Of a stretch of 64,000 nt of DNA, positions 13,817 to 31,372 are shown in pieces (the stretch's first letter is position 1; each line of letters opens with the position of its first letter). Origin of the DNA: an uncultured delta proteobacterium (lineage in GTDB: Bacteria; Myxococcota_A; Polyangia; Haliangiales; Haliangiaceae); the NCBI GenBank assembly GCA_963848295.1, contig CAWKDB010000010.1, positions 1,120,001-1,184,000 of the forward strand, in the 5' to 3' direction. The notes under the pieces are model-generated. The model had not been told where the DNA came from, did not search any database, and was given only the letters and a program-made list of their open reading frames with translations. Both the position numbers and the translations under genes were made by a program.

Positions 13817-14251
13817 CTATCGCCGGCCGGAGCTCGCCGCACAGGCGTCGCACATCCCTCGGACCTGGACCTCGAACTCGCCGAGCTTGATCGAGCGCGG
13901 TGCCTTCACCCGGCTCGTCGTGACCTTCATATCGTTCAGGCACGACACGGTGCCGCAGCTCGCGCAGATGAAGTGCGGATGCGCTCGGGCGTGCGGTGCG
14001 CTCCGAGCCGGCTCGAACCGCCACGTGCGATCGCCGACGGCGACCCGGCGCACGAGGCCGGCGCGCGCGAGGTCCATCAGGTTGCGATAGACCGTCGCGC
14101 GATCCTGGGCGTCGCCGCCGAGGCGCTCGGAGATCTCGGCATGCGATATCGGGCGCTCGCTCGCATTCACGATGCCGAGCACGGCGATGCGCTGCAGCGT
14201 CGCGCGCAGCCCGGTGCCGCGAATCGCGGCCCGCAATTGGTCGTGGGTCAC
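13817..14251 (-). CDS. Fur-family metalloregulator (paralogue 1)
   Basis: RATLQRIAVL, DRATVYRNL, HPHFICASCG...RGMCDAC. Confidence 0.9.
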   Translation of the reverse strand: MTHDQLRAAIRGTGLRATLQRIAVLGIVNASERPISHAEISERLGGDAQDRATVYRNLMDLARAGLVRRVAVGDRTWRFEPARSAPHARAHPHFICASCGTVSCLNDMKVTTSRVKAPRSIKLGEFEVQVRGMCDACAASSGRR

Positions 14252-14264
14252 GTGGCGAACGCGG

Positions 14265-15565
14265 CTACTGCGCCGGCGCGATCATCGGGTGATAGAACGG
14301 ATCGGATGCGTTCTGGCCCACGATGTAGCAGAGGCCGTTCGCGTTGAGGTGCGTCTGCGACTGCGCCGAGAACGCCATGAATGCCGACAGCCCGGAGATG
14401 TTCGCCGACGGCACGCCGTTGAGGTCGAGCGTGACCTGGCTCGGGTTCGTCTGATCGGTGGTGAACGTGCCGGTCGGGTTGTTCAGGTACGGCGCGCGAT
14501 CGGGTAGTGGACTGCCATCGCGAACGTAGTCGCGAGCGGCTTGTCGGCGAGCGAGCCGAGATCGAGCGGCGTCGTGTTCGTATCGGCACCGGCCCACGCG
14601 GCGATGTAGTCCATGCGCAGCGGCGTGCCCTCTTGCTTGAGCTTGTCCCAGAACACGTGGTCGGTGTGCACCGTGACCTGCGCGATCGTCGCGCCGTTGG
14701 TGTTCGGCTGGACGCCGCGGTTCGCGAGGTTCTCCTCGTCCATGTCGCCGTTGAACGGGTTGATGCAGTTGATGCTCGACGTCGCATCGTTCCAGCCGAA
14801 CGCGAAGTGAACTTGTGGAGCGGTCGTGTACGCATCCATGACGGGATCGTAGACACCGCCGGCGAGGGCCTCGAACTTCGCCTCGGTCGGTGCATCCGGG
14901 TACTTGCCGGTCCCGACGAAGTTCGCGCGCGCCTCGATGTACTTGTCCCAGTGGTTCTTGACCATCGTGTCGTAGATCGCGAGCTCGCTCTCGGTCAGGT
15001 TGACCTGGGTCGCCGGATACTGCGCCGGCACGGTGTCGTAGCTGAACGCGTAGAGCGTGCTCGAGTCGAACGCCGTGCCGTCGTCCTGCGTGTCCCACTT
15101 GAAGATGCCGCCCGCGGGCTCCTCGCCATCGGCACCGACGAAGCCGTTGAAGCCATCGGTCGCGAGCTGATGGATGTCGACGACGTACGGGCCGGGCTTC
15201 ATCGCGACGATGCCGTTGAGCTGCTGCTGGTTCGAGTACTGGACTGCGCCCGGGCTGAGCCGAACGTTGCCGATCACGACGATGTACTTCTCGAACGTCA
15301 CGCTCCAGCCGTCGACGAACTGCGGATCGCCGACGTTGACGGGCTGAAACGGCAAGCCGTTCTCGCCGAGCGTCTCGCCCGAGATCGTGACCTCGATCGA
15401 CAGCGGCGTGTTCGGGGCTCGTCGCGTGTGAAGCCGGGGTCGAACGAGCCAAGTGCGTTGAGGCCGGCATCGGCGGTCGATGGCGCGTCCTTGGGTGCGT
15501 CGGTTGTAGCGCTACCACCGCCGCCACAGGCGGCGAGCAGCGCGAATGGCAGTTACGGATGACAT
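14265..15565 (-). CDS. Large lipoprotein associated with the TonB-dependent receptor (frameshifted)
   Basis: Reconstructed: FALLAAC lipobox, ISGETLGENG...FVDGWSVTFEKY, HTDHVFWD, C-terminus HLNANGLC...APAQ. Confidence 0.7.
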
Positions 15566-15586
15566 GCGGTGAATCACGGGAGCTCC

Positions 15587-16331
15587 TTAGTTGGTTGAAA
15601 CGAGGTCGAAGAGGTAGACGCCGGTCTCGCCCTTGACGCCTTCGAGCAGCTGCGCCGCGAACGTCGTGTCGACGGTCCACGTGTAGCCGCCGAACGGCGG
15701 AGGGCCGTTGGCGATCTGGGAGAAGTCGGATTGATCGAACCAGTGCGTCGGATCGACGTGCAGCTCGAGCTGCTGCGGCGCGGCGGTGAACGCGAGGTCG
15801 ACGGACGCGCCGCGGATCCGCTGCAGATCGGCGAGCGGCTCGGTCGTGGTGACCAGCGTCTGATCGATCACGATCTGGCCCTGGAACGGCACGGTCAGCG
15901 AGGCATTGGTCGCCGTGCCCGCGACGAACGCGAAGCCGCCGCCGATCGTCTCGGCCTCGTCGGGCTGCGCGAGCTGATTGGTCTGGTCGGGCGGCAGCAG
16001 GCCGATCTCGACCGACACCGTGGTGCCGGTCTCGCCGTTCGCGCCGCCGGTCACGTCGTACAGCGTCGGATCGAGCGCGTCGATGATCGTCTGCTCGGTC
16101 GCCTGGATGATCACGACGCCGGAGCGGAACTCGCCGGTCGACGGCGGATCGACGTTGAAGTAGAACGGCCCGGCGGCGATCAGCGCTTGCTGCAGCGTCA
16201 CCGTCCAACCGGTCGGTGTCGTGAAGGCGCCGAGCGCCGTGCCGCCGGCTTGAAACGGCAACGACACGAGGTCACCGCCGGTCGTGTTCGTGCACGCCGT
16301 CGCGAGCACGAGGAGGAGCGCGGCGCCTCAT
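15587..16331 (-). CDS. Lipoprotein associated with the TonB-dependent receptor
   Basis: ATG overlaps receptor stop; LLLVLATAC lipobox (1-bp shift near start); GWTVTL, VDPTHWFD motifs. Confidence 0.75.
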
Positions 16332-18962
16332 CGCGTGCCCTCGCGATCCAGTAGAAACGCGAGCGTGAACATCACCGTGCGCGGCGGTGCGGCGGTGAAG
16401 TTCAGCGCGGGCGCGAGCGTCGGGTACGCCGGCCCGTTGTGAAAATCCGACGCGTAGAAGTACTCGGTCAGCGGGTAGCGCGCGTTCGCGAGGTTCGCGA
16501 TCTGCACGCCGAGCCGGATCCATCGCCAGCGCACGCTCGCCGACGCGTCGACCGTGAACGTCGATTGTGACTCCTGGCCGAGCGGCAGTGCGCGCGGCCC
16601 GACGAAGTTCAAGCCCGAAGCCGGCGCTGCCGATCAGCGGATGACCGTGGAGTTCGAGCGCGTCGGGGAGGGCGTGGACGACCGAGGAGTCGGACCGCGC
16701 GACCGTGCTCGGCACGTACGGCACGAGCGTGTGGTCCTGATCGTAGGTCGCATACGCGTAGGTGAACGAGGCCAGCTCGTTGAACCAGTGCCCGGCGGCG
16801 TGCGCCGCCAGCACCAACCCGCGCCGCGTCGTGCCGGTCGAGGCCGACAGTCGCCCTTGGAGCGGATCGAAGATCAGGTCGCGATCGACGTGGGTGTAGT
16901 AGCCGACCGCGCGCGCGGTGATGTCGAGGTCCTTCCAGCGATCCTCGTCGCGGTCTTGCGCCCACTTGCCGTGGTAGACCGCGCCGCCTTCGTAGGCGTG
17001 CAGCGTCGAGAACGGCGCATTCTCGTCCTGGCTGATGTACTGCGCGTCGAGCGACTGCGCACCGACGCCGGCGCTCGCGGTGAGCGACACGCCGCCCGGG
17101 AGCTGCGCGATCGCGGTCGCCTTGGGCTCGGTGATGACGCCGGTCGCGGTGATCCGCGACGTCGGCTGCCGCGGCCCGGCGGAGTCGTACGCCGGGCACA
17201 ACACGTTGAGCGGCTGGTTGCGCTGGTAACCGCCGTCGGTCGCGCAGTTGTTGAGGATGTCGTAGCTGAAGAACTCTTCGCGCGCGCCGCCGCGCAGCGT
17301 GAGCCAGCTCAGCGGATGGAGATCGAGATCGGCGAACGCGGCGAGGTTGAGGACATCGGTCGTCAGCGTCGTATCGATCAGGTACGGGATGTCGCTCCCG
17401 AACCGCAGCCGCTGGATCGAGGGATCGGTGTGGTCGTAGCGCGCGTAGTAGCCGAGCTCGACCGATTGCGACTGACCGAGCGCGTGCCCGGTGCGCCGAT
17501 ACGAGCCGCGTGCGCCGGCGGTGACCGCGTCGTAGTCCTGCTCGATCGCGTCGCCGCGCTGCGGGTGAAACGACTGACCCGGCTCGGGGTTGTCGAGCAG
17601 GAACCCGGTGAAGTCCTCGACGATCCGCAGCGTGCGGTAAGTGAGAAATACCTGCTGCTTCGCGACCCCGTCCTCGAGCGGATTCTCGAGGCTGAACGAC
17701 AGCGTGTAGCGCTGGGCGTCTCCGCCCTGGCTCGGATCCTCGGTGCCGTAGTAGTCGATCTTGCCGTCGGCGATATCCGCGGCGCGCACGACACCCGCGG
17801 CCTTGTAGTGCGTGCCGTACGCGGTCGCGAGCAGGCGCCAGATCCCGTGCTCGCCGAGCGTGCCCTCGTATTGGCCCATCGCGGTCGCGGCGCTGTCCGC
17901 GCGATTGACGCCGTAGCCGGCGCTGTTGAAGATCTGCACCGCGCCGAACGTGGCGTCACGCTCGGCACGCGGTGCCCACAGCGCGAGCGTGCGCGTCGTG
18001 CCGAACTGGCCGGCGCTCTGTTCGAATTCCAGGCCGCGTTCCGCGACGCCGAGCTCGTAGTTCGCACTGCCCGCGACCGAGAAGTCGCCTTGATGCGGAT
18101 CGAACGGCCCCTCGATCACGCGCAGCGACTTGACGACCTCCGGGATGATGAAGTGCGTGTCGGCGTAGCCGTGACCGTCGGTGTTGTCGACCTCGTTGAT
18201 CGGGACACCTTCGACGGTGAACTCGATGTCCTGGCCCTGCTCGGCGTCGAACCCGCGCAAGAACACCTGATCGGCGTGACCCGCGCCGCCCTCGTTGGCG
18301 AGGAACAAGCCCGGCGCCTGCTCGAGCATCTTGCCGGCGCTCGCCTGCGCGGTCTTCGACAGCTGCGACGGCGTGATCTCGATCGTGCTCGCGCCGCGGT
18401 CGAGCTGCTTGGTCGCTTTGCGGGTCGTGCCGGTCATCGTGATCACCTCTCCGATCGCCGCGGCCGGATCGAAGTGGACGGCGACCGTGATATGGCTCGC
18501 GACGGGCTTGCCATCCTTGTGAGCGGGCCCGAAGGTCCACCCGAGCACCGAAGCGGTCGCGAGGTCGTCGAACTGCGGTTGCGGCGCCGAGATCACGCGC
18601 GGATTACTCGGCATCCCCGCGCTGTCGACCTCGACGTGGACCAGCACGTCGGTGACGCGCTGCTGCTTCTTCGGGAGGTCGGGATAGATCGGCGGTTGCT
18701 GGACGAGGATCCGGGGCGGTTCCTCGGTGGACGGCTGCGGCGGCTGTCGCACGGCCGGGGCCGGCGCGGCATCGCTCGGGGCCGGCGCGGCATCGCTCGG
18801 GGCCGGCGCGGCATCGTTCGCGGCCGCGGGTGCATCGGTCACGCCGGCATCGACCGGTTGTGACCGCGCAACGCGCGGGAAGGCGATAAACAAGAGCATG
18901 GCAAAGGCGGTTTTTGCGTATGGACGGATCACGGCGACTCTTCCAGCCGGCGCTCGCCGCAT
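16328..18962 (-). CDS. TonB-dependent receptor with N-terminal TonB C-terminal-like domain (frameshift near 16612; start uncertain)
   Basis: TonB_C-like PIYP...WTFGPAHKDGKPV; plug FLRGFDAEQG...GHGYADTHFIIPEVV...GPF; C-terminal NLANARY...PRTVMFTLAF. Confidence 0.9.
18756..18816. repeat. 21-bp coding tandem repeat (~3 copies; SDAAPAP)
   Basis: cggggccggcgcggcatcgct repeated. Confidence 0.85.
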
Positions 18963-19078
18963 AGCTACGGCGAGCAACAGGCGTACGACTCGGCCGATCG
19001 CGCGCGCGACCAGCCGACATGCGCGGCGCAGCCTCTAAGCGCACTCCGCGCGATGCGCGGGCGCGATCGAAACCACGC

Positions 19079-19477
19079 TCAGGCGCGAATGGGCGGCGAG
19101 GTCTTCGGCGCGAACCGGTAGCGGCTCGCGACGATGGTCGTGACGTGCGCGGGCGCGCAGTCGGTCCGGGTCTCGAGCCTCGGTGACAGCGCCACGACGC
19201 GCGAGGCTTCGTGGTGAACGGCTTGGTGAAGCGCCTTGGAGATCTCGCACGGACCGTCGTCCGGCTGCCCGTCCGGCGACGGGTGGACGTCCGACTGCGC
19301 GCCGTGGTGGTGACCGACGAGCGAGATCGCGTGATGGAGCTCGCCGGTGTGCGGATCGAGGACGTGCGCGACCTGCGCCTCGTGGCGCATGCCGAGCACC
19401 CCCGCGGCGACGAACGACAAGCATGCGACCGCGGCAAGGACCCGGCGCGCGAGGGACGCGCTCCGGAACTCCTGCAT
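19079..19477 (-). CDS. His-rich exported/leader protein ending APKTSPP (DUF2946/CruR-like architecture)
   Basis: Hydrophobic N-terminal segment, many His (LHH, GHHHG, VHH), C-terminal RFAPKTSPPIRA; directly upstream of the receptor. Confidence 0.7.
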   Translation of the reverse strand: MQEFRSASLARRVLAAVACLSFVAAGVLGMRHEAQVAHVLDPHTGELHHAISLVGHHHGAQSDVHPSPDGQPDDGPCEISKALHQAVHHEASRVVALSPRLETRTDCAPAHVTTIVASRYRFAPKTSPPIRA

Positions 19478-19487
19478 ACGAGTTGCA
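19473..19487. promoter_or_regulatory. Putative Fur-family operator TGCAT-ACGAG-TTGCA
   Basis: Palindromic TGCAW-N5-WTGCA overlapping the leader gene start; recurs at 20253 and 22658. Confidence 0.65.
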
Positions 19488-19631
19488 AGTGTCACGGCTC
19501 AACACATGGCATGTTCAAAGCGATCGAGTCAAGCGCAGCTCGTGAATCGCGTGACAGGCGTGATCGATTCCGCAACTATCACGACGATGCAGGAGCATCG
19601 AAGTCGCAACAACGTCCACGGTTTGACCGCT

Positions 19632-20060
19632 CTATCGGCAGACGTCGCATAGCCCGCGCAGGTGCACTTCCACCTCGCGTTGACGGACGGCGCGCGGCGT
19701 GTTCGCTGGTGACAAGGCGACGGTGGTATCCGAGAGGCACTCGACGGTGCCGCACTCTGTACAGACAAAGTGCGGATGCGACTTCGCCTCGTGCGCGCTG
19801 TCGATCACCTCGAAACGCCACACGTGATCACCGACATCGGTGCGCCGCAGGAGACCAGCTTCGGCGAGGTCGACCAAGTTGCGGTAGATCGTGGCCCGGT
19901 CCCAAGCCGCGTGCTCGAGTCGATCGGCGACCTCGCCATGAGACATCGGCTCTCCGACGACCCGCAGTAGATCGAGTACGGCGATACGCGAAGGCGTCGC
20001 GCGCATACCCTTGCTTCGAAGTTCGTCACGCAACTCGACTCGTTTCGAGCTACGCGCCAT
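19632..20060 (-). CDS. Fur-family metalloregulator (paralogue 2)
   Basis: RATPSRIAVL, DRATIYRNL, HPHFVCTECG...RGLCDVC. Confidence 0.9.
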   Translation of the reverse strand: MARSSKRVELRDELRSKGMRATPSRIAVLDLLRVVGEPMSHGEVADRLEHAAWDRATIYRNLVDLAEAGLLRRTDVGDHVWRFEVIDSAHEAKSHPHFVCTECGTVECLSDTTVALSPANTPRAVRQREVEVHLRGLCDVCR

Positions 20061-20252
20061 GAGTCCACTCTACGCCGTCGAGAGCGGTGACGCAACCGAG
20101 CTTCAGATGCGACCGTACCGCAGGTAGCCGTTATCGCCGTCGGGCAACGCTACGCTCCTCGAGCCGAGGGGTCGTGCTGGGCGTGGCCACAGCGCCTTCG
20201 CGCATGCCGATTCGGAGTGAGACGTTCCCGCTATACGCATAACGTATCTTTC

Positions 20253-20267
20253 TGCATAATCGTTGCA
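20253..20267. promoter_or_regulatory. Putative Fur-family operator TGCAT-AATCG-TTGCA
   Basis: Same palindrome 17 bp upstream of the ZIP-like gene, in an AT-rich stretch. Confidence 0.65.
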
Positions 20268-20284
20268 TCTATGGCGGGCGCATC

Positions 20285-21754
20285 ATGTTCGGCGTAGCGC
20301 TGTTGCTCTCGATCGGTGGGTTGATGATCGGCCCGGCGATTACCTCGTGGGCGCACGGTCGATCGGCCTGGCTGCGCGTGATCGATGCGGGGATGCTCGG
20401 CATCGTCTTGCCGCTCCTATTGCTTCGCCTGGTGCCGCATATCGTCGACGAGATCGGCGGGATCGCGGTGGCCGCCGTCGCCGTCGGCTACGCCGCGTTC
20501 ACCGCGCTCGAGTCACGTACCCACGGGCGCGCGACGCAGCTCGGCGCAGCGATCTTGTTGCCGACGCTCGGGATCCACTCGTTCTTGGACGGCACCGCGC
20601 TCGCGATCGCGTTCCAGCACGGCGGGACCGACGCTGCGGGAGCGACGCTTGGAGCGGCGCTCGTGCTCCATCGCATCCCCGAGGGTTTGGTCATCGCGAC
20701 CGCGCTCGTGCCGACGCTCGGGGTCCGCGGCACCATGTATCGGGTCGCGGCGCTCGGTGCGATGACGATCACCGGCGCCCTGATCGGGCGCGAGCTCCTG
20801 GCGCACACGCCCGACCGCGCCTTGCACGTGGTCGTCGCGGTCGGTCTTGGTGTGATGCTCCGGATGGTCCTGCACAGCCATCATCGCGAGCACGTCGACG
20901 CCGGACCGCGGCGCGAATGGCTCGATGGCGTCGCCTTTGTCGGTGCCGCCTCGCTGTCGTTCGCAGTGCCAGCCCCGTGGCAGTTGTTCGAGCAAAGCCA
21001 GCCACACGAGATGTCGGCGGCGCACGCGATCGTTCCGCTGTTTCTGGAGACGGCGCCTTGGGTGCTCGCAGCGCTGATCCTCGGGCAGGTCGCCGACCGG
21101 CTCATAGCCTGGCACCACGCCGATCGCTCGTGGCCGGCGGGTTGGCTGGTCGCGATCATCCTCGCGCTTTTCTGGCTCGGGCCGTGGTTCGCATTGGCGA
21201 TAGCGGTCCTCGGGCCAGGTGTCGTGTGGTGGAGCTCGCGGCGAGAGCCGACGCTGGGCTCGTTCATTCCAAGGGCGACCGCGGTGATCCCGTCCTACGC
21301 AGCAGGGATCGCGATCGCGGTGACACTCGAAGCAGCGGTCCCGGCGAACGCGCTGGACTTGATGTCGACGTTGGGATGGATCGCGCTGCCGATCACCCTC
21401 GCGGCCGCGTGTCTGGTACCGATGAACGCGGCTGGACTGCTCCCGATCACGGCCATCCTCGTCCACAAGGGCTTCGAGCCGGGCTTCGGGCTGGCGTACG
21501 TGCTCGCATCGGTGGTCGTCGCGTCGCGCGACCGGCAATTCCCGATCTCTTGGCGCGTGCCGGCGGCGATCGTCGTCGCGGGAGCCGGTTCGATGGTGAT
21601 CGGCCCGGTACTCGAACCGCTTCCGCGCCTGCACGAGCTCGGTCATCACCATCACGCGGCCTTCGAGTACGTGACCGCGATCGCGGTTGCGGCGTGGATT
21701 CTGTTCGAGGTCGTGCGTCGCGGTCCGCGGCCGTTTCTCGAGCAGATTCGATAG
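20285..21754 (+). CDS. Metal transporter: ZIP-like N-terminal domain fused to a permease-like (DUF318/ArsP-like) C-terminal domain
   Basis: IHSFLDG and LHRIPEG ZIP signatures, HSHH linker, LFLETAPWVL segment, GHHHH near C-terminus. Confidence 0.75.
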   Translation: MFGVALLLSIGGLMIGPAITSWAHGRSAWLRVIDAGMLGIVLPLLLLRLVPHIVDEIGGIAVAAVAVGYAAFTALESRTHGRATQLGAAILLPTLGIHSFLDGTALAIAFQHGGTDAAGATLGAALVLHRIPEGLVIATALVPTLGVRGTMYRVAALGAMTITGALIGRELLAHTPDRALHVVVAVGLGVMLRMVLHSHHREHVDAGPRREWLDGVAFVGAASLSFAVPAPWQLFEQSQPHEMSAAHAIVPLFLETAPWVLAALILGQVADRLIAWHHADRSWPAGWLVAIILALFWLGPWFALAIAVLGPGVVWWSSRREPTLGSFIPRATAVIPSYAAGIAIAVTLEAAVPANALDLMSTLGWIALPITLAAACLVPMNAAGLLPITAILVHKGFEPGFGLAYVLASVVVASRDRQFPISWRVPAAIVVAGAGSMVIGPVLEPLPRLHELGHHHHAAFEYVTAIAVAAWILFEVVRRGPRPFLEQIR

Positions 21755-21846
21755 CCTGATGCTCCGCGAATCGAGCTTGACTCGACGATCGATCCGGTCT
21801 ATCAGTTCATCATTCGTTGAAATGACATCTCGAAAGGACTCCGGCG

Positions 21847-22198
21847 ATGAGCCACCCACCAAGTTCACACCCAACACGATCATGTTCATGGCGCCAACTG
21901 CGGCCACCGCGCTGTCCGGCACGGCGGACCATGTCGATTACCTCCACGACGGCCACCTCCACATGGTTCATGGCGATCACATCGATGAGTGCACCGGTCG
22001 CGGTCGACGCATCGAACCCGGCCGGCTGCACGCCGGGTCACGCGTGCAAGGGCCACGTGGCCGGTCACGCGCACGGTGCGACCTGTGGCCACGAGGCGGT
22101 ACCGCACGGCGACCACGTCGACTATCTGGTCGATGGCCACCTTCACCACGCGCACGCCGGGCACTGCGATGACCACGGCGCGCTCGCAGAGCGCGTGA
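21847..22198 (+). CDS. Small His/Cys-rich metal-binding protein with internal duplication (frameshifted; end approximate)
   Basis: Reconstructed HDHVHGANCGH...HVDYLHDGHLH...H and HAHGATCGHEAVPHGDHVDYLVDGHLHHAH; AAGGA RBS. Confidence 0.75.
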
Positions 22199-22276
22199 TC
22201 CGGCAGCTCGGACACTTCATCATTTGTGCGGTCGATGGAATAATCGACCGATGAATTCCACGTCAGCGGCGCCAGC

Positions 22277-22606
22277 GTGCCGGTCATGCCCACGCTCACC
22301 GGCGCCCGCCAAAACGCCCCTCCGACACTCGCATTCGCGCGTGCGGCCGCGTTGTTTCGCGCGGCCGGCGATGTGCCGCGGCTGCGCCTACTGCACACGC
22401 TCGCCCACTCCGAGTGGTGCGTGTCGGAGCTCGCCGAAAGCGAGGGCACGAAGCTCTCGACGTTGTCGCAGCAGCTACGGGTGCTCTACGCGGAGCGAAT
22501 CGTCGAGCGCCGCCGCGAGGGCAAGCACATCTATTATCGTCTCACCGACGAGCATGTTCGCGAGCTGGTCAGCACCGCGCTCGCCCACGCCGGCGAGCTC
22601 GGCTAG
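22277..22606 (+). CDS. ArsR/SmtB-family repressor with alpha5 metal site
   Basis: FRAAGDVPRLRLL, CVSELA, LSQQLRVL, RREGKHIYY, DEH-x10-HAGE. Confidence 0.9.
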   Translation: MPVMPTLTGARQNAPPTLAFARAAALFRAAGDVPRLRLLHTLAHSEWCVSELAESEGTKLSTLSQQLRVLYAERIVERRREGKHIYYRLTDEHVRELVSTALAHAGELG

Positions 22607-22657
22607 CGCGGTCGGCCGCGCGACCGGACTCGAGTTGTCATCAACGCGTTAGACTAT

Positions 22658-22672
22658 TGCAATGCCTATGCA
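22658..22672. promoter_or_regulatory. Putative Fur-family operator TGCAA-TGCCT-ATGCA
   Basis: Third copy of the palindrome, 22 bp upstream of the SPFH operon ATG. Confidence 0.6.
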
Positions 22673-22694
22673 TGTGCTATGACTGTGCGACCTG

Positions 22695-24621
22695 ATGGAC
22701 GAGACGCCGGCGCCACCAGACGAACCCGCACGACGGTCTTCCGAGCTCGACCCGTATCGCGGCGTGCTTCGCTTGCTCGTCGCGCTCGCGGCGCTCGGAG
22801 CGATCGGGGCGTTCGGAGCGGCGATCGCGATCCCGGCGCCGGCGGCGCTCGATGCGGCGGTCACGTTGGGACTTGCTGCCGGAGTGATCGGCGGTGCCGC
22901 AAAGGCACGAGCGCTCCGCCGCCGACGACCCCATCGAGCCGCGGAACCGCTCGCGGTTCCGCGAGTCGAGGCTGAAGCACGACCTCCGGACGCGACGCCG
23001 TCCGTGACGTCCGAACAGCCGGTGTCGACGTCCGAACCGCCGCCGACGGCGTCGACCGAGCCTCCCGCGCCGGCGGCACCAACGACCGAAGCCGCGGTCG
23101 CCGGTCCGGTCTCCCCCGAGCGGACGAAGGCTCCCGAGCGCATCGCGCCGCCTTCACCAGCCGAAGAGCTGGACAATACGCGTACGTGGGTCGCAGGGGC
23201 GACCATCACGGTCATCGCGCTCGAGCACGTATGGCTGCTCGGCACCGCGTTCCGCCCGGGCTGGGTCGCGACCGGCCTCGTCGTTGCGGCATGCCTCGCG
23301 GCAGCGGGCGTCGCCGGCCTCGCCGCGCGATACCTGATGTCGGTCGAAGCGGCGCAGCTGCCGGAGTCCTCCTCGCTCGGTCGAGGGGCACGCGTCACCG
23401 CGTGGGTGCTCGTGCTCGTCGCGATCGCCGCGACCGCGGCCGGGTTCGGCCTCACCGCTGTGTTCTGGGTCGCCCATCTGCTCGCCGCCACCGTGATCGT
23501 TGGCACGTGCATCGGCCTGTTTCGCAAGCACATCGATCGCGAGCGTCCCGAGTTTCCACTCGACCTCGGCGTACCTGCCGTGCTCGGCGCGCGACCCAAC
23601 ATCATCGCCAGCATGCTCGACGCGGCGCGAGCGCCAGCTCGGGATCGATCTGCGCTCGACGTGGGCGCTGACCGTGCGTCCGCCGCAGCATCGTACCGCT
23701 CGCGCTCGGCCTCGCGTCGCTCGGCTGGTTATCGACGGCCATCTCGATCGTGCGTTCCGACGAGCGGGCGTTCGTCGAACGGTTCGGTGTCCGGCTCGAT
23801 GGGCCCGCGCGCTCTCGCCCGGTATCCACCTGCACTGGCCGTGGCCGATCGACCACGTGACGCGGATTCCGGTCCAGCGCGTGCGCTCGCTGACGGTCGG
23901 CCACGAAGGCCGAAGAGTCCGGCCCGGAGAACGTGCTGTGGGCCCGGCGAGCACGCTGCAAACGAGTACACGCTGCTGCTCGGCAACGGCCGCGATCTGA
24001 TCACGATCGACGCCGACGGTCCAGTACCGCATCGTCGACGCGCGCGCGTGGGCGTACGCGCTGCTCAGAACCCGGCCGACGCGCTGCGCGCCATCGCCTA
24101 TCGCGCGGTCATGCGGGCGACGGTCGAACCGCACACTCGCCGAGGCGCTGTCGCGAGAACGTCGCGACGCTGACGGCGGAGATGCGCGACGACGGTCCAG
24201 CACGACGCCGACGCGCTCGGTCTCGGCGTCGAGGTCGATCGCCTTCACGATCGGCGGGATGCACCCGCCGGTCGAGGTCGCTGCGGCGTACCAGGCCGTG
24301 GTCTCGGCCGAGCTCGGCAAGGTCACCGCGATCGTCGAGGCGCACGCGCAGCGCAATCGTGACCGTCCCGGCGGCGGAGGCCGACGGCGTGGTCAGCGCC
24401 AACGACCGCCGCGCGGCGGAGGCGCCGCGGCGCTCGCGCAGGCGGCCGGCGAGGCATGGAGCTTTCGCACGCTCGAAGCGCAGTACCACGCCGCGCCCGA
24501 GGAGTATCGCTTCCGCCGCCGGCTCGAGACGCTGGAGAAGCGGCCTCGCCGGGCGCGCGCTTCACGATCATCGATGCCCGCATCCTGCGGGATGGCGGTG
24601 GAGCTATGGCTGACGCCGTGA
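22695..24621 (+). CDS. Multi-TM HflK-like SPFH (band 7) protein (heavily frameshifted)
   Basis: Several TM helices, PGIHLHWPWPIDHV, LLGNGRDLITIDA, QYRI, MHPPVEVAAAYQAVVSAE. Confidence 0.75.
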
Positions 24622-25526
24622 AGTACGCGAGACGCTGGCTGCGGGCCACGGTCGGGACTCCTGGCGCTCGCCGCGATCGTGCTTCACGCCTCGGCGGTCG
24701 TCGTGCGTGAAGGCCAGGCGGTGCTCGTCACCCGGTTCGGCGCGCCCGCTTCGCATCGCGACCGAGCCGGGGCTGCACTGGAAGCTGCCGTGGCCGATCG
24801 ACGAGACGACCGTGTCTCGACATGCGGCGCCGCGTCTACGAGACCGGGCACACCGAGATGCTCACGCGCGACAAGAAGAACGTCATCGCGCGCACGTTCG
24901 TGGTGTGGCGCATCGGCGATCCGCTCGCTGTTCACCCAGGCGGTGGGCGACGCAGGCGCAGGCCGACGGCAAGCTCGACGGCCTGCTGACCAACGCCGCG
25001 ATCGCGACGCTCGGCGGCCACGACCTGTCGGCGCTCGTGTCCACCGAGCCCGAACGACCTCCAGGTCGATCAGATCGAGGCCGAACTGCTGGCCTCGACC
25101 GCGCCCGTGGCATTGAAGAGCTACGGGGTCGCGATCGAACAGATCCGACTCGAACGCATCGCGCTGCCCGAGGAGAACGTGACCGCGGTGTTCGACCAGA
25201 TGCGCGCCGAGCGCCGCCAGTTCGCGGCGAAGTACGAGGCCGAAGGCGAGCGCGAGGCAAGCGCGCATCCGCTCCGAGGCGGACCTCGAGGCCGCGAAGC
25301 ATCCGCGCGCAAGGGCGACGAGGAAGCAGCGCGCATCCGCGGCGAGTCCGCGGCCGAGGTCGCGAAGACCTACGCCGATGCGCACAAGGTCGATCCGCGA
25401 GCTCTACCGCTTCACGCGCTCACTCGAGTCGCTCGAGAAGCTCGTCACCAGCGACGCACGTCGCTGATCCTGCGCACCGATTCCGAGCCGTTTTCGCTGC
25501 TGCAGAGCACAGCCGAGCCAAGATGA
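24618..25526 (+). CDS. HflC-like SPFH protein (frameshifted)
   Basis: VVREGQAVLVTRFG, EPGLHWKLPWPID, EMLTRDKKNVI...VWRI, VFDQMRAER; GTGA overlap with upstream gene. Confidence 0.8.
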
Positions 25527-26640
25527 GGCGGCCGCAAGCCGCCGTCGGAGATCGCCCGGCTGGCCGCGCCGCTGGCCCGCGTGCTCGATGCCGGACTGGC
25601 GGCGCATGCACTGGTGGCTCGCGACGATGGCCGTGCTGTACGCGCTCTCCGGCGATCACGCATCGTCAAGCCGGACGAGGTCGCGGTGGTGCTGCGCTGG
25701 GGCGCATGTGGTCGAGTGGAACGCACGGGCCGGGCCTCGCTGTTCGCGCTACCGCGGCCGATCGATGAGGTCGTCCGCGTTCCGATCAAGCACGTCTCCG
25801 AGTTCCGCATCGACACGCTCGCGACGTGCGTACGGGGTGATCGAGCACGCTCGATCCGGTGCAGGCAGGGCTACGCGCTCACCGGCGATCACAACATCGT
25901 CCATGTCGAGATCGTCGCGCACTACCGCGTCCGCGATCCGGTCGAATGGGCGTTCTACGGTCCCAACGCCGACGACGTGCTGCGCGTCGAGGTCACGCGC
26001 CGCGATGGTGCGGTCGCTGGGCGAGATGGGCGTCGATCGCGTGCTGTCCGACGGCCGCAAGGAGCTCATCGCGACCGCGACCGCGGCGCGCGCAGGCCGG
26101 CCTCGATGCCGCCCAGCACCGGGCTCGAGCTGACTCGTCGCTCGAGCTCACGCGACTCGGCTCCGCCCGTCGCGGTGGCGCGCGAGTTCGACGCGGTGCA
26201 GAGCGCGTTCATCGGCGCCGAGACGCAAGAAGAAGGAGGCCCAGGCGTACGCGCAGAGCGCGATTCCCGCACGCGCAGGCGGCCGCCGATCAGGCGGTCC
26301 AAGCTTGCACGCGGCGACGCCGCCGACGGCCATCGCTCGACGCCAAGGGCGACGCCGAGGCCTTCCTGGCGCTCGACCCAGCAGTACCGCCAGAACCCGA
26401 TCGTCGTACGCGAGCGGCTGTACCGCGATGCCGTCGAGCAAGCGCGATCGGCGTGCCGCGAGCGTGCGCTGGGTGCCGCCACCCGACGGCGCGCGATATA
26501 CGGAGCTTCCGGATCGCGATCGACCGCACGGACGCCGGCCGGGCGCCGACTCCGAGCTCCGGCCGCGCCTGCCGCCGGAGGACGCCGTCCGACGAGCAGG
26601 ACGAGGCGCCGTCCGACGACCTCGGGCGGACGATCGATGG
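25523..26640 (+). CDS. HflK-like SPFH protein (frameshifted; end approximate)
   Basis: VKPDEVAVVLRWG, LPRPIDEV, YALTGDHNIVHV...YRVRDP, PPVAVAREFDAVQSA, RERLYRD; ATGA overlap. Confidence 0.75.
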
Positions 26641-28595
26641 AGGACGTGCTGATCGAACCGGTGCCCGGCGTCCTGGCTGCCGAGGAGCGCCGCCGGATCA
26701 GCGTCGGCTCGGCACCGGCCTCGCCGGCCATCGGGCTGCTCGCGCTCGGCACGGTGCTGCTTCACGCTCGCGCCCGATCAATGGCAGATCGGCGAGCTGT
26801 GCCGCGGCGATCGCCGCGCTCGTCGTCGCGGCGTTCCGACGCTGATTCGGGCATTCGCGGCATCATCACCGGCGACACGCGCCGCACGACCGATCAGCTC
26901 GTCGCGATCGCGGTCCTCGCCGCCGCGGCGACCGGCCACTTCGTCACCGCGACGCTCATCCCGCTGTTCCTCGAGATCGGCCGGCTGTTCGAGGAGCGAA
27001 GCGCGCTGGGGGCCCGCGCCGCCATCGACGGCATCCGCGCGCTCGCCGCGCGCCAGGCCGTCAAGCTCCACGGCGACGAAGAGCTCCGCGTCGATCCCGA
27101 CACGCCTGGTGGTCGGCGACGAGATCCTGTCCGTCCGGGCGAGCGCATCGCGGTCGACGGCACCGTCCTCGACGGCCGGCGGCCGTCGATCCATCCGCGA
27201 TCACCGGCGAGTCAGTGCACGACGACGTCGGGCCCGGTAGCCCGGTGTTCGCCGGACGATCGCGCTCGACGGCATGCTCAGGATCCAGGTCCGCGGTGCC
27301 GGTGCCGAACACCGTGCTCGGCCGCGTGGTCAAGCTGCTCGCCGACGTCGAGCGCACGTCGGTGCCCGATGCTGCGCGTTATTCGAGCAGCGCGCCGGCG
27401 TGTGGCTGCCACTGGTGCTCACGCTGGCGGCAACGACGCTGTTCTTCACCAAGGATCTGTCGCGCGCGATCACGGTGCTCGTCGTCGCGACCCCCACCGC
27501 GCTCGTGGTCGCCGGCCCGGCGGCGATGGTCGCCGCTATGAGCGTCGCGACGCGGCTGCGCATGCTCGTCAAGAGCTCCGACTTCTTCGAGCGCGCGCCC
27601 GACGTCGACACGCTGATCCTCGACAAGACCGGCACGGTCACGCTCGGTGCGCCGACGGTCACCGAGCTGCGCCCGACGGCGGGCGTCGCCGACGACGAGC
27701 TTGCTCGCGACCGCGGTCGCGTGCGCTTCGGCTCGCTGCACCCGGTGTCGCGCGCGGTCGTCGCGGCCGGGCACGCCCGCGGGATCGTCGCGCCGACCGA
27801 GCGAGCTGCAGGAGCGTCCGGGCCTCGGCGTGCTCGCTCAGGTCGATGGCGAGCCGCTGCGTGCTAGGTCGGCGAGCGCTGCTCGCGGAGTGCGGGGTCG
27901 AGGTCGCCGCCGACATCGATGACGACGTCTCGCAGGTCTGGGTCGCGCGCGCCGGGAGATGCCTCGGACAGATCGTGCTGCGCGACCGTCCGCGGGGCGA
28001 GGCCCACGAAGCGCTCGCGGCAATGCGCGCGCTCGGAATCGACCGATTCGTGCTGCTCACCGGCGATCGTGCCGCGGCAGCCCACGAGGTCGGCGCGGCG
28101 CTCGGCATGGACGAGGTGATCGCCGAGGTCTTGCCGGCGCAGAAACTCGAGGTCATCCGCGCCCATCAGAAGGCCGGCCGCGTCGTGATGATGGTCGGCG
28201 ACGGCGTCAACGACGCCCCGGCGCTCGCAGGCGCCGACGTCGGCGTCGCGGTCGGCGCCGAGCTCAACGAGGTCGCGCTCGGTGGCGCCGACGCCGCCTT
28301 ACTCGGCGCCGACCTGAGGCGCCTGCCGCGCCTCATCAGGCTCGCCGACACGACGCGCCGCATCCTCGGTCAGAACGTCTGGCTCGCCTTCGGCCTCTCG
28401 CTCATCCTCATCGGATTCGCGGCGCTCGGTGCGCTCGATCCGATGACCGGGGCGCTGGCGCAGAGTGCGGCGGTCATCCTCGTGGTCGTCAACAGTGCGC
28501 GCATCCTCCGGTTCGATGACAAGGCCGCGGCCGTCGACGCCACGCGCGATGCGCCTGGTGAATCTCCACAACCCGCAGCCGCGACCGCAACATGA
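26637..28595 (+). CDS. P1B-type (heavy-metal) ATPase with atypical TPT motif (frameshifted)
   Basis: PGERIAVDG, ITGES, VVATPTALVVAGP, DKTGT, SLHPVS, LTGD, MVGDGVNDAPALA. Confidence 0.88.
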   Translation: MEDVLIEPVPGVLAAEERRRISVGSAPASPAIGLLALGTVLLHARARSMADRRAVPRRSPRSSSRRSDADSGIRGIITGDTRRTTDQLVAIAVLAAAATGHFVTATLIPLFLEIGRLFEERSALGARAAIDGIRALAARQAVKLHGDEELRVDPDTPGGRRRDPVRPGERIAVDGTVLDGRRPSIHPRSPASQCTTTSGPVARCSPDDRARRHAQDPGPRCRCRTPCSAAWSSCSPTSSARRCPMLRVIRAARRRVAATGAHAGGNDAVLHQGSVARDHGARRRDPHRARGRRPGGDGRRYERRDAAAHARQELRLLRARARRRHADPRQDRHGHARCADGHRAAPDGGRRRRRACSRPRSRALRLAAPGVARGRRGRARPRDRRADRASCRSVRASACSLRSMASRCVLGRRALLAECGVEVAADIDDDVSQVWVARAGRCLGQIVLRDRPRGEAHEALAAMRALGIDRFVLLTGDRAAAAHEVGAALGMDEVIAEVLPAQKLEVIRAHQKAGRVVMMVGDGVNDAPALAGADVGVAVGAELNEVALGGADAALLGADLRRLPRLIRLADTTRRILGQNVWLAFGLSLILIGFAALGALDPMTGALAQSAAVILVVVNSARILRFDDKAAAVDATRDAPGESPQPAAATAT

Positions 28596-28626
28596 ACGAC
28601 AGCGTCGCGGGTTGCCGAGACTTCTG

Positions 28627-28742: not shown

Positions 28743-29984
28743 ATGCGCGGCTCGGTGCTCGTGGCGTCAGCGGCGGTCCACGCCGCGCTGTTCGCGGCGA
28801 TGATGCACTGGCTCGATCGCGACGACCATCTGGCACTTGCTGGCACGGCGCCGACACGGGCGCAGCCGACGCCGATCGAGATCTTGCCGCCGAGTGCCAG
28901 CCCGCCGATCGACGTCGAGATGTTACCGCCGGATGTCACGACCCCGACCGCGCCGCTCCCGCCGTCCGCGCCTGCGCCTGCGTCGAATCGCGCGACCGCG
29001 GCGCCGGCCTCGAGCAAGGCGGTCGCCTCCGCGATCGCGCCGACCGGCGACGAGTCGACCGTGCCGACCAGCGAGCACCCGCCTTCGACCGACAATCCAT
29101 TGATGCGCATGCGCGGTCCCCAGCTGCCGAACCTCGGCGACACGCTCGACAAGATCGCCGCCGAGGGCAGCGCCGCGTCACCGCCGGTGGTCCCGAAGAC
29201 CGGGATGCTGCGCGAGAAGGGCCACGACACCGCAAAGATCTACGACACGGTCACGACCGTCGCGGTCGCCGCCGACGGCACGGTCAAGTTCCACGACAAG
29301 TCCGCGGCGGACATCCACTTCGCGCTGCCGTTCATGCACCTGGACGTCGATGGCATCGGCCGCAGCATCGGCCAGGGGCTCCACGAATGGGCCGAGGATC
29401 CCTACGCGCAGACGCGAGTCGGCACGACGCAAGATCAGCCGCGGACGAACCAGGCGGTGCCCGAGCAGTGTGACGAGTGGGGCTCGTGCTTACCGACCGG
29501 TGGTGGGCCCGGCATCGGCCACGCCGAAGAATCGAACGACAACACCGGCGGTGGCAGCGTCATCCCGCTCCTCGGCGGCCACCTCGACGTCACCGATTGG
29601 CTGATGCGCCGCCACCATATGGATCCGTACGCGTCGCGCAAGTTGAAGATCCTCGACGCGACTCGCGACGAACGCGTCGCGCGCGGCGATGCGCACAAGA
29701 CCGAGCAGCTCGAACAGGCGGGCGAATACATGCGCAAGAACCTCGCGACGCTGTACGCGGCCAACGGCTCGCCCGCGGAGAAGCGCGAGGCGTTGTTCGA
29801 GCTTTGGGACGAGTGTGCCGAAGGCGAAGGGCCGCTCGGCGAGGCCGGCGGCCGCGCGCGGATGGAGGTCATCGGCTGGATCGCCGTCCACATCCCGAAG
29901 GGCAATCCCGAGGCGTTCACCGACGCGGAGCTCGAGCGGTTCAACGCCCATCGCAGCTCGAAGCAGGTCTTCGCGCCCTACTGA
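28743..29984 (+). CDS. Hypothetical protein with N-terminal membrane anchor and Pro-rich linker
   Basis: SAAVHAALF anchor, Pro/Ala linker, DPYASRK...ALFELWDECAE. Confidence 0.75.
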   Translation: MRGSVLVASAAVHAALFAAMMHWLDRDDHLALAGTAPTRAQPTPIEILPPSASPPIDVEMLPPDVTTPTAPLPPSAPAPASNRATAAPASSKAVASAIAPTGDESTVPTSEHPPSTDNPLMRMRGPQLPNLGDTLDKIAAEGSAASPPVVPKTGMLREKGHDTAKIYDTVTTVAVAADGTVKFHDKSAADIHFALPFMHLDVDGIGRSIGQGLHEWAEDPYAQTRVGTTQDQPRTNQAVPEQCDEWGSCLPTGGGPGIGHAEESNDNTGGGSVIPLLGGHLDVTDWLMRRHHMDPYASRKLKILDATRDERVARGDAHKTEQLEQAGEYMRKNLATLYAANGSPAEKREALFELWDECAEGEGPLGEAGGRARMEVIGWIAVHIPKGNPEAFTDAELERFNAHRSSKQVFAPY

Positions 29985-30004
29985 GTCCGTGGTACGAACC
30001 GCGG

Positions 30005-31372
30005 GTGTCGGCCCCGCTGATCCCGCTCGGCAAGCGCGCACCCGCGCCACGGCCGCCGCCACCAGCCGGCGCGCCCCGGGTGTTCGTCGAGACCTACGGC
30101 TGTCAGATGAACGTCGCCGACAGCGATCTGATCGGCAGCGTGCTCGCCGATGCCGGCTACGCGCAAGCCGCGCGCGCCGACGATGCCGACGTCATCGTGA
30201 TCAACACGTGCGCGGTGCGCGAGAAAGCCGAGGAGCGCGTGATCGCACGCGCCGCCGAGCTCGGCTCGCACAAGCGCAAGCGGCCCGGCACGGTGCTCGC
30301 GATCGTCGGCTGCATGGCCGAGCATCTCAAGGAAGGCCTGGCCGAACGCGCGCCCGCGGTCGACGTCATCGCCGGGCCCGACAGCTACCGGCGCATGCCC
30401 GAGCTGCTCGCCGCGGCGCGCGCGAAGTCCGGGCTCGTGGTCGACGTCCACCTCGACAAGGCAGAGACCTACGAGGGGCTGTCCGGCGCGGTCGGCGGCG
30501 ATGGCGTCTCGGGCTTCGTGACGATCCAACGCGGCTGCGACAAGTTCTGCACGTTCTGCGTCGTGCCGTTCACCCGCGGTCGCGAGCGCGGCACCCCACC
30601 GCGCGAGGTGTTGCGCCAGGTGCGCGAGCTCGCCGCCGCCGGCTATCGCGAGGTCATGCTGCTCGGGCAGACCGTCAACTCGTACGTCTACGAAGACGTC
30701 ACGTTCGCCGAGCTGCTGCGCGCCGTCGCGCGCACCGACATCGAGCGCATCCGGTTCACGTCGCCGTATCCGGTCGACTTCACCGACGACGTGATCGCCG
30801 CGCTCGCCGAAGAGCCGAAGTTGTGCAAGTACATTCACCTGCCGGTGCAGTCCGGCTCCGATGTCGTGCTCGAGCGGATGCGCCGCGGCTACACCGTCGC
30901 CGACTTTCGCTCGATCGTGTCGCGCCTGCGCGCCGCCATGCCGCACGTCGCGCTATCGACCGACATCCTCAGCGGCTTCTCCGGCGAGACGGAAGGCGAT
31001 CACGCCGCGACGCTGGAGCTCATGCGCGAGATCCGATTCGACAGCGCGTTCATGTTCGCGTACTCCGAGCGCGACCTGACGTTCGCCGCGAAGAAGCTGC
31101 CCGACGATGTCACTCCCGCGATCAAGGCGCGCCGACTCGCCGAGATCGTCGCACTGCAAGAACAGATCTCGGCCGAGGTATTCGCGGCCCACGTCGGGCG
31201 CGCCGAGCGCGTGCTCGTCCACGGCCCGAGCAAGCGCGACCCGGCCCAGCTCGTCGGTCGCACCGATGGCTTCAAGACCGTGATCCTGCCCGCCGGCGTC
31301 GGGGCGGTCGGCGAGATCGTGGACGTAACGATCTCGCGCGCGACGATGGCGACGCTGTTCGCGTCTGTCTGA
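30005..31372 (+). CDS. miaB: tRNA-i6A37 methylthiotransferase MiaB
   Basis: TYGCQMNVADS, NTCAVREKAE, radical SAM CDKFCTFC, HLPVQSGSD, TRAM-like C-terminus. Confidence 0.93.
   Translation: MSAPLIPLGKRAPAPRPPPPAGAPRVFVETYGCQMNVADSDLIGSVLADAGYAQAARADDADVIVINTCAVREKAEERVIARAAELGSHKRKRPGTVLAIVGCMAEHLKEGLAERAPAVDVIAGPDSYRRMPELLAAARAKSGLVVDVHLDKAETYEGLSGAVGGDGVSGFVTIQRGCDKFCTFCVVPFTRGRERGTPPREVLRQVRELAAAGYREVMLLGQTVNSYVYEDVTFAELLRAVARTDIERIRFTSPYPVDFTDDVIAALAEEPKLCKYIHLPVQSGSDVVLERMRRGYTVADFRSIVSRLRAAMPHVALSTDILSGFSGETEGDHAATLELMREIRFDSAFMFAYSERDLTFAAKKLPDDVTPAIKARRLAEIVALQEQISAEVFAAHVGRAERVLVHGPSKRDPAQLVGRTDGFKTVILPAGVGAVGEIVDVTISRATMATLFASV

Follow-up and report, generated by a model that had tools for sequence, protein, structure and literature searches.

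The locus described here raises the question of what three SPFH proteins are doing beside a metal pump. Within the window, a stretch of 64,000 nucleotides from an uncultured delta proteobacterium, an earlier note had singled out four consecutive genes on one strand and proposed that the three SPFH proteins (here subunits A, B and C) form an assembly dedicated to the P1B-type ATPase encoded after them. The answer which we tentatively prefer is that the three proteins build their own HflK/C-type periplasmic ring around this ATPase, and that the complex serves the uptake of a divalent metal, most likely zinc under shortage.

The four genes lie on the same strand where the earlier note had placed them (Table 1), and the sequence contains both of the overlapping junctions, GTGA at 24618 and ATGA at 25523. 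A 1004-aa ORF (25581-28595) resembling an SPFH-ATPase fusion was rejected as an accidental open frame because its homologues are separate genes. Of 67 flanking ORFs picked, 42 were scanned, and none of these was a conserved fifth gene of the block. In genome G026 the subunit B orthologue scores 154 bits with TIGR01932 (cut-off 134) and the ATPase orthologue 458 bits with TIGR01525 (cut-off 346), while the TIGR01933 scores of 98 and 145 bits, the latter for subunit C, both fall below the cut-off of 159. Taken with the fold matches described below, these scores assign the trio to the SPFH domains of the HflK/HflC type.

Table 1. Features of the four-gene block and its surroundings (positions in the window)
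Feature	Coordinates	Strand	Basis
TonB-dependent receptor, same metal-uptake island	16272..18977	-	Plug + TonB_C domains
Fur-family regulator	19632..20060	-	PF01475 E 9e-15
Permease, weak ZIP + ArsP_1 similarity	20285..21754	+	PF02535 and PF03773, both below cut-off
Small His/Cys-rich protein gene, frameshifted, boundaries approximate	21800..22190	+	Sequence
ArsR/SmtB metalloregulator, directly upstream, outside conserved core	22277..22606	+	NF033788 80 bits (cut-off 55); L048 same place
Subunit A	22695..24621	+	74% to P0002 (frameshift-aware alignment); model of intact orthologue; motifs
Subunit B, HflC-like single-anchor SPFH protein	24618..25526	+	87% to L048 orthologue
Subunit C, second HflK-like SPFH protein	25523..~26634 (3' end approximate)	+	80% to L048 orthologue
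P1B-type ATPase without N-terminal metal-binding domain	26637..28595	+	Translation; 89% to L048 orthologue

Frameshift-aware alignment with close intact homologues revealed 18 frameshifts in A, 13 in B, 25 in C and 17 in the ATPase (ca. 73 in 4.2 kb), with a single stop in all. Nearly all of them lie within 23628-27860; the upstream permease gene has none, the TonB-dependent receptor gene has one near its end, and the small His/Cys-rich gene shows four gaps against a short-read contig. They look like assembly errors, since the short-read contigs, where they cover the region, lack the extra bases. The earlier note had called for a correction from reads; over 23626-24068, contigs of run X1 omit letters at, or no more than about 5 bases from, eight places where a frameshift is predicted. 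This comparison involves single contigs at a depth of about 3, from a run which may be the source sample. That the copy in the source genome is a decayed pseudogene cluster, as so dense a set of frameshifts could suggest, is hardly credible given 74-89% identity, the lone stop, the integrity of every motif, the missing bases in the short-read contigs and the fact that the ftsH of this genome is split as well.

The survey of gene neighbourhoods suggested in the earlier note gave a near-invariant picture from both directions. The order long HflK (A), HflC (B), HflK (C), P1B-ATPase is kept in 59 of 64 genome loci, the exceptions being four loci cut by contig ends and one with a truncated A; starting from the ATPase, A, B and C were present at all 45 loci whose upstream sequence reached 2.3 kb or more. 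The same order was found on plasmids of Klebsiella, Burkholderia, Paraburkholderia and Rhizobium, and in nine of 20 Planctomycetota regions fetched. By gene order and co-descent the four genes are a fixed, co-inherited operon. Operons often join related but separate proteins, and the high identity across phyla (60-74%) suggests that the block was transferred recently, an effect that raises the synteny counts; even so, mere co-regulation with no physical contact is very unlikely, because the order persists in distant clades (35-38% identity) while the flanking genes vary, and because fusions exist.

The best Foldseek match of subunit A is the E. coli HflK/HflC-FtsH cage (7VHP, 7WI3, 9CZ2; E 2e-12), with which the present system shares HflK-like and HflC-like subunits. 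It differs in having three SPFH genes plus an ATPase rather than a two-gene hflK-hflC unit, in the extra CDF-fold domain and His loop of A, in its separate clades, and in its partner gene, which encodes a pump and not FtsH. The SPFH genes branch apart from FtsH-associated HflK/C (FastTree, 82 rows), and for B, the one subunit so tested, the AU test rejects a grouping with canonical HflC (p 0.009, 22 rows); the joining of these genes with canonical HflK/C, which the earlier note had named as a ground for abandoning its proposal, was thus not observed. The 30 separately encoded ATPases from operons with the A-B-C-ATPase order form one clade (SH-aLRT 100; quick tree), mirrored by matching clades of subunits A (89) and B (94). 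It is true, as the earlier note remarked, that the window has no ftsH, the sole copy found being on contig C11, but this is uninformative because canonical hflKC does not adjoin ftsH either.

We consider it improbable that the trio is an alternative HflK/C which regulates FtsH, itself a zinc protease, or guards membrane proteins under metal stress, with the pump as a neighbour or transient client. Genome G000 (85% complete) does have a single ftsH and, the trio aside, no hflK/hflC pair, B exceeds the HflC family cut-off, and a link between HflK/C and FtsH has been mentioned for PA2437-9 (PMC11761036). Besides the AU test, this explanation has against it that G065 carries a canonical-type HflK above the cut-off in addition to the operon, that P. 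aeruginosa carries both loci and that a DNA search found the operon in merely one of 36 same-genus genomes; it also leaves the fusions and the matching clades unexplained.

Subunit A is predicted to begin with six membrane helices in a CDF/ZnT-like domain that lacks zinc ligands; a linker, an anchor helix and an HflK-like SPFH domain carrying a WxxxH..E loop and HPP follow. The model of an intact orthologue (pLDDT 85) matches HflK with Z 14.7 and, over residues 1-219, CDF/ZnT transporters (ZnT3, 9JJ1, and SLC30A10, 9KVX), the score for ZnT3 being Z 15.5 (rmsd 3.7, 186 aligned); the Atlas TM for the CDF fold is 0.55. The six helices are collinear with those of CDF/ZnT transporters (HH global probability 52%), although the local HH alignment gave 5% (controls against ArsP and ATPase alignments, run in local mode only, 0.1%) and PF01545, the Pfam CDF family, was found in none of 56 and none of 70 A proteins. 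A six-helix CDF membrane fold is accordingly a prediction for A. CDF/ZnT transporters have [HD]xxxD in TM2 and TM5; A lacks the HxxxD motifs, and the place of their C-terminal dimer domain is taken by an SPFH subunit. In a register set by a moderate-confidence alignment, the TM5 column holds R in 93 and W in 91 of 119 proteins and TM2 has no conserved ligand, so that the TM5 site is predicted to have become RxxxW; apart from R170 and W174 the membrane domain is poorly conserved. On the periplasmic side, 117 of 119 diverse A proteins carry WxxxH and 116 carry HPP. Neither was found in 21 B, 21 C or 14 canonical HflK/C proteins, and the pair is subunit A's own periplasmic signature, common to pump-HflK and CDF-HflK fusions (both motifs are present at loci L184 and L199).

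These fusions belong to related trios with the same K*-C-K layout, in which a transporter is covalently attached at the A position: P1B::HflK (987 aa, L184), CDF::HflK (L199, L097) and ArsP_1::HflK (five loci). WxxxH and HPP are shared with A by the P1B fusion and one CDF fusion. The joining of an HflK-like protein to a P1B-ATPase, a CDF transporter or an ArsP permease supports a coupling of scaffold and client. The SPFH and ATPase lineages of the fusion trios are partly different from those of the present operon, and the best 150 matches in the profile search included no protein of fusion length. The ATPase::HflK fusion serves as an analogy only, since its ATPase lies outside the 30-row clade and its SPFH parts are nearer to canonical HflK/C.

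Synteny, separate clades and fusions thus argue for an SPFH assembly dedicated to the ATPase, much as first proposed; what has to be given up is the idea of an ordinary heavy-metal pump, because the Cys/His site is absent. The window ATPase has TPT instead of CPC in M4 and QS instead of HN in M6. In its clade xPT and QS take the place of the CPC and HN seen in relatives; [TAS]PT occupies M4 in 108 of 108, and L081 and L084 have CPT. The catalytic motifs TGES, DKTGT, HP and GDGVND are intact, and D326-T330, G188-E189, H365-P366 and G518-D523 are invariant in 57 of 57 ATPases, whose membrane helices hold no conserved Cys or His; E110, T284 and Q606 are invariant in the same set. The best solved-structure match of the ATPase profile is the P1B-4 pump sCoaT (7QBZ; E 3e-116). 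Like sCoaT and other P1B pumps it has MA, MB and M1-M6 (by hydropathy), and it shares the lack of a metal-binding domain; sCoaT has SPC, HEGxT and an exit Glu120, whereas here we find TPT, QS, Thr at the Glu120 column and a new invariant Glu nine residues beyond it. The protein matches the P1B family profile but has neither a CPC/CPH/SPC motif in M4 nor the SPC and HEGxT of the P1B-4 subgroup. Zinc transport by an xPT pump is without a precedent that we could find, since a CPC-type motif has been called essential in all P1B pumps studied (PMC4285229).

The earlier note knew of no functional characterisation of such a module, yet P. aeruginosa has a described counterpart, for which expression under zinc limitation and a triple deletion have been reported. 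PA2439-PA2434 comprises PaFlo5-6-7 (PA14_33070/33080/33110, the PA14-PAO1 equivalence probably holding) and HmtA (PA2435). Three SPFH genes in one operon beside a P1B-ATPase gene are common to both, a match at the level of layout, as is a patchy spread by transfer; a fifth gene like PA2436 or PA2434 is not conserved at the present operon. Table S1 of PMC13086221 gives SPFH lengths of 666, 346 and 337 for P. aeruginosa, and its Burkholderia and Rhizobium lengths resemble those of the plasmid trios examined; sequence orthology of the present operon was established to the Burkholderia, Rhizobium and Klebsiella trios. The proteobacterial relatives examined have CPC, HN and His-rich N-termini, in contrast to the xPT and QS of the present clade. 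Zinc depletion raises PA2435 and PA2437-9 by 5.6- to 14-fold (PMC4542158, Table 2), and in one P. aeruginosa study hmtA was neither repressed by zinc nor bound by Zur (PMC10393844). Reviews report that HmtA imports Zn and Cu, on the strength of overexpression of the pump alone. For the PaFlo5-7 deletion the accessible part of the source describes only slight biofilm and virulence effects and no metal test. No ATPase is mentioned in the main text of the SPFH paper (PMC13086221), whose Figure 1 or slide supplement may show the ATPase as a neighbour. Literature searches, with subscription papers outside their coverage, found no paper on transporter::HflK fusion trios, no study of a TPT-motif P1B and none of SPFH-ATPase binding.

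In the window the operon belongs to an island that also encodes a TonB receptor, Fur, ArsR and a ZIP-like permease, surroundings that support uptake. The receptor gene is directly upstream of the operon at L029 and L035, the ZIP/ArsP_1-like permease adjoins it at L029, L035 and L048, and tblastn matches to the small His/Cys-rich protein lie near it at 12 of 64 loci (hand count). A metal-related neighbour was counted by hand at only 25 of 64 loci, a figure with no background rate to set against it. The metal-type palindrome which the earlier note saw before the operon is present (ATTGCAAT, 22656-22663), but 17 short inverted pairs, this one included, fall within 161 bases, and it occurs in none of 86 upstream regions of homologues (gene starts set automatically), which leaves a role as operator unsupported. 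A sigma-70 site was looked for at the operon and none was found.

The same ring and pump might instead move a harder ion (Mn, Fe(II), Ca, Mg), or export. The Cys-free membrane helices with their invariant polar residues are consistent with this, as are the broad ion ranges, even Ca, reported for P1B-4 pumps (PMC8880997), the exporter families from which the other trio clients (CDF, ZntA-type, ArsP) come and the position of the ArsR/SmtB gene; we nevertheless think it unlikely in view of the uptake-type neighbours (TonB receptor, ZIP, ABC-3, Fur, DUF1826) and the response of the P. aeruginosa counterpart to zinc depletion.

A further possibility draws on KdpFABC as the analogy of a two-subunit pump: the entry route of the ion would be subunit A, with its periplasmic His site and CDF-fold domain, and the ATPase would give power and part of the path. 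The transporter fold in A and the repeated erosion of the metal site within the ATPase family (CPT, LPC, CPG and xPT variants; quick tree) beside invariant catalytic motifs speak for such a hybrid importer, which would account for inward transport by a P1B pump. If true, an ATPase without its Cys/His site would act through or alongside a CDF-derived domain fused to a cage subunit, metal would travel by way of the cage, which would be more than a fence, and the inward running of HmtA-family pumps would be explained. The absence of both HxxxD motifs from a poorly conserved membrane domain, the invariant polar residues retained in M2, M4 and M6 of the ATPase and the reported rise in metal content on overexpression of HmtA alone make it distinctly improbable.

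The fixed block, the Cys-free pump and the predicted disabled zinc-transporter fold in A make it likely that the four proteins are one metal-uptake complex. In the dedicated ring which we prefer, A and C would alternate at the HflK positions and B would occupy the HflC positions; the cage would sit over the periplasmic face, fencing off a patch of membrane, and would not enclose the cytoplasmic catalytic domains. The ligand-less CDF domain of A may be a membrane handle holding the pump, by analogy the job of the covalent link in the ATPase::HflK fusion, and the A-specific periplasmic His354, Glu358 and His455 could catch or relay metal under the ring. The pump of the present clade would use a rebuilt oxygen/nitrogen site, weaker than a Cys site, for which the alignment offers Glu110, Thr284, Asn577, Gln606 and Ser607 (L029 numbering) as candidates.

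The PaFlo5-7/HmtA module of P. aeruginosa was already known; the predicted CDF fold of A, the WxxxH/HPP signature and the xPT/QS ATPase clade are added here. In the papers examined, the described partners of bacterial SPFH cages are FtsH and NfeD. The trio bears on what such cages do for their clients, as a presumed cage whose transporter client is genetically fixed, with a candidate handle in the disabled CDF domain and a candidate metal site in the periplasm, all of them open to mutation. Many phyla share the P1B clade defined here, in which the Cys motif regarded as essential is missing. For P. aeruginosa, zinc limitation and HmtA offer a specific angle on the PaFlo5-7 deletion, which had little phenotype in the conditions used.

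The four consecutive genes of the earlier note, a long multi-TM HflK-like gene (A), an HflC-like gene (B), a second HflK-like gene (C) and a P1B-ATPase gene, were recovered by three-frame translation of 22600-28620, where they are spread across all three frames, and by frameshift-aware alignment to intact homologues. The A/B and B/C overlaps are both present in the sequence; the metal-type palindrome said to precede the operon was not supported. The contig belongs to an 85%-complete genome, and the four genes together carry 73 frameshifts and one stop in these alignments. The region 20223-28515 is 83% identical in DNA to locus L048, which has the same upstream genes. Contigs of short-read run X1 (low depth, possibly the source sample) lack letters no more than about 5 bases from eight predicted frameshift sites. 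We read the gene breaks as assembly errors; that this copy is a pseudogene is hardly credible.

Features of the window in and around the operon
Feature	Position	Strand	Remarks
TonB-dependent receptor (N-terminal TonB_C domain) cluster	13839-19495	-	with small His-rich protein, unknown gene, lipoprotein
Small His/Cys-rich protein	about 21800-22190		internal repeat; no Pfam match
A (long HflK-like)	22695-24621	+	74% identity to intact homologue
B (HflC-like)	24618-25526	+	87% identity to intact homologue
C (HflK-like)	25523-about 26634	+	80% identity to intact homologue
P1B-ATPase	26637-28595	+	89% identity to intact homologue
MiaB-like radical SAM	29477-31372		UPF0004, Radical_SAM, TRAM; downstream of operon

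Scanning the genome collection by alignment of A gave 64 loci (Myxococcota, Acidobacteriota, Gemmatimonadota, Bdellovibrionota, Planctomycetota and others). The order A-B-C-ATPase is found in 59, the query's own included; of the other five, four run into a contig end and in one A is truncated. In this last, the sole synteny exception (L091:10001-11000), A stops partway through the SPFH domain and the next gene is unrelated. The reverse test used the ATPase M3-M4 region as pattern and examined the best 80 of 213 metagenome loci: A, B and C were present in 45/45 loci with at least 2.3 kb upstream, and the fitting part of A-B-C in 20 of 21 with 0.3-2.3 kb, the last, with 379 bases, showing nothing; 14 with less than 0.3 kb were uninformative. 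These loci are not independent: many belong to related samples, and ATPases found beside A served to build the pattern. It is the distant clades that give the conservation its depth. On the four proteobacterial plasmids examined the genes keep this order (ATPase and B approximately 35-38% identical), as they do in 9 of 20 Planctomycetota regions, picked from 61 genomes for paired or long HflK matches. The proposed hflK-hflC-hflK-ATPase synteny is nearly invariant in both searches. Physical association of trio and ATPase is probable, and their lack of contact very unlikely.

The block is accessory, since a DNA search found it in 1/36 same-genus genomes. No fixed fifth gene was found, flanking genes differing between loci. 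Counterparts of the TonB-dependent receptor cluster, whose lipoprotein had no NCBIfam match, lie directly upstream of the operon at loci L029 and L035. The gene for the His/Cys-rich protein, possibly a metal store or chaperone, recurs near the operon, often next to an ArsR gene; the MiaB-like gene is unrelated.

In a quick IQ-TREE of 41 ATPases, all 30 that have this gene order and are encoded separately group in one clade (SH-aLRT 100). Among 82 SPFH domains (FastTree) A and C fall on the HflK side and B on the HflC side, all outside the small canonical groups, and an AU test (22 rows, simple model) rejected a clade of B with canonical HflC (p 0.009); the grouping with FtsH-associated HflK/C that would count against the proposal was not seen. 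Regulation of FtsH by the trio is rather unlikely. The genome of the window shows no hflK/hflC pair besides the operon, which counts against separateness from the canonical proteins; genome G065 has a canonical-type HflK in addition to its operon. The earlier observation that the window contains no ftsH stands but does not discriminate, as canonical hflKC also does not adjoin ftsH. The assembly is likened to the HflK/C cage in its working, but is not canonical HflK/C. In G065 a 609-aa frame (L183:3684-5513, minus strand) joins canonical-type HflK and HflC, by true fusion or sequence error.

One 987-aa ATPase::HflK, five ArsP_1::HflK and two CDF::HflK fusions were found, each followed by an HflC-like and an HflK-like gene; the A position is therefore client-bearing. 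The fused ATPase keeps CPC and falls outside the operon clade (quick IQ-TREE), and is therefore parallel evidence. In the ArsP_1 permease fusions (L186-L190) the WxxxH/HPP signature is absent from the two checked. Further possible clients are nhaA, directly 3' of hflK-hflC on a Vibrio plasmid (L181), and a cation:proton antiporter near hflK-hflC in Pontibacillus (L180).

Band_7 is the sole Pfam match in A. Its model (pLDDT 85) has six helices in residues 1-214, joined by a linker to an anchor helix, after which comes the SPFH domain; from the seven helices we infer this domain to be periplasmic, as in HflK. Among known structures the six-helix part resembles human ZnT3 (Z 15.5; rmsd 3.7 over 186 aligned positions) and SLC30A10 (Z 15.3); four further ZnT entries (Z 9.7-10.6) score level with unrelated ferritin-like bundles (about 10). 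Independently, an Atlas comparison ranked a CDF cluster first (TM 0.55). When profiles were aligned globally, A and a set of 27 CDF domains were collinear (52% probability), the TM5 HxxxD falling on RxxxW; local alignment was weak. Descent of A from a CDF::HflK fusion is plausible because true fusions, keeping both HxxxD motifs, sit at the A position in L199 and L097. The SPFH domain of A carries a WxxxH..E loop (117/119 diverse members) and HPP (116/119); both occur in 18/22 tree rows, including the ATPase fusion L184 and CDF fusion L199, and in 0/21 B, 0/21 C and 0/14 canonical HflK/C.

The ATPase is P1B by profile, its orthologue in a same-genus relative (G026) exceeding the heavy-metal ATPase cut-off, but lacks the M4 metal motif: M4 is [TAS]PT in 108/108 close homologues (107 of more than 600 aa among 120 listed, plus the query), where CPC/CPH/SPC is stated in part of PMC4285229 to be essential for P1B pumps. 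Catalytic motifs are invariant in 57/57 ATPases. M6 is QS, against HN in proteobacterial relatives and HE in sCoaT (ligands from part of PMC8880997). Nested inside the operon clade is a derived group of 17 rows that combine xPT or CPT with QS (support 100). No membrane helix has a conserved Cys or His; E110, T284 and Q606, invariant there, are a candidate joint metal site. Eroded M4 motifs (CPG, CPT, LPC) in operon ATPases of L193, L195, L196 and L198 suggest repeated cysteine loss. Several loci of Acidobacteriota and Gemmatimonadota have, close to the operon, an ATPase of a second P1B clade (M4 GACG, M6 HVxSE; L040, L041, L052, L069, L085, L117).

As the likeliest reading we tentatively propose, at slightly below an even chance for the whole, that A, B and C would assemble into a dedicated periplasmic ring, the disabled CDF domain of A would hold the ATPase in a fenced patch, the histidines of A would catch metal, and the pump would take up divalent metal, probably zinc, through a rebuilt site. 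Ion and direction carry most doubt; another ion, or export, is unlikely. By analogy with the KdpFABC-type split pump, subunit A and the ATPase might instead be a split pump, which is quite unlikely.

The earlier note knew of no functional characterisation, but a likely counterpart has been described. In P. aeruginosa, PA2434-PA2439 includes hmtA together with three genes like those for HflK/C; expression rises 5.6- to 14-fold when znuA is mutated, and the locus has a weak Zur box (sections of PMC4542158). Its proteins are enriched under zinc depletion (part of PMC11761036). Reviews (passages of PMC8456098, PMC10393844) call HmtA a Zn/Cu importer, which needs confirmation, and cite another study where it was not zinc-repressed. 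In PMC13086221 the trio is named PaFlo5-7 and called horizontally spread, its deletion has slight phenotypes, and the main text never names an ATPase; passages of PMC2636767 likewise have none. Stomatin, according to part of PMC13724742, associates with transporters. In Table S1 of PMC13086221 the accession column seems out of step with the organism columns, and lengths and organisms alone were used. The window operon is likely a member of this PaFlo5-7/HmtA module.
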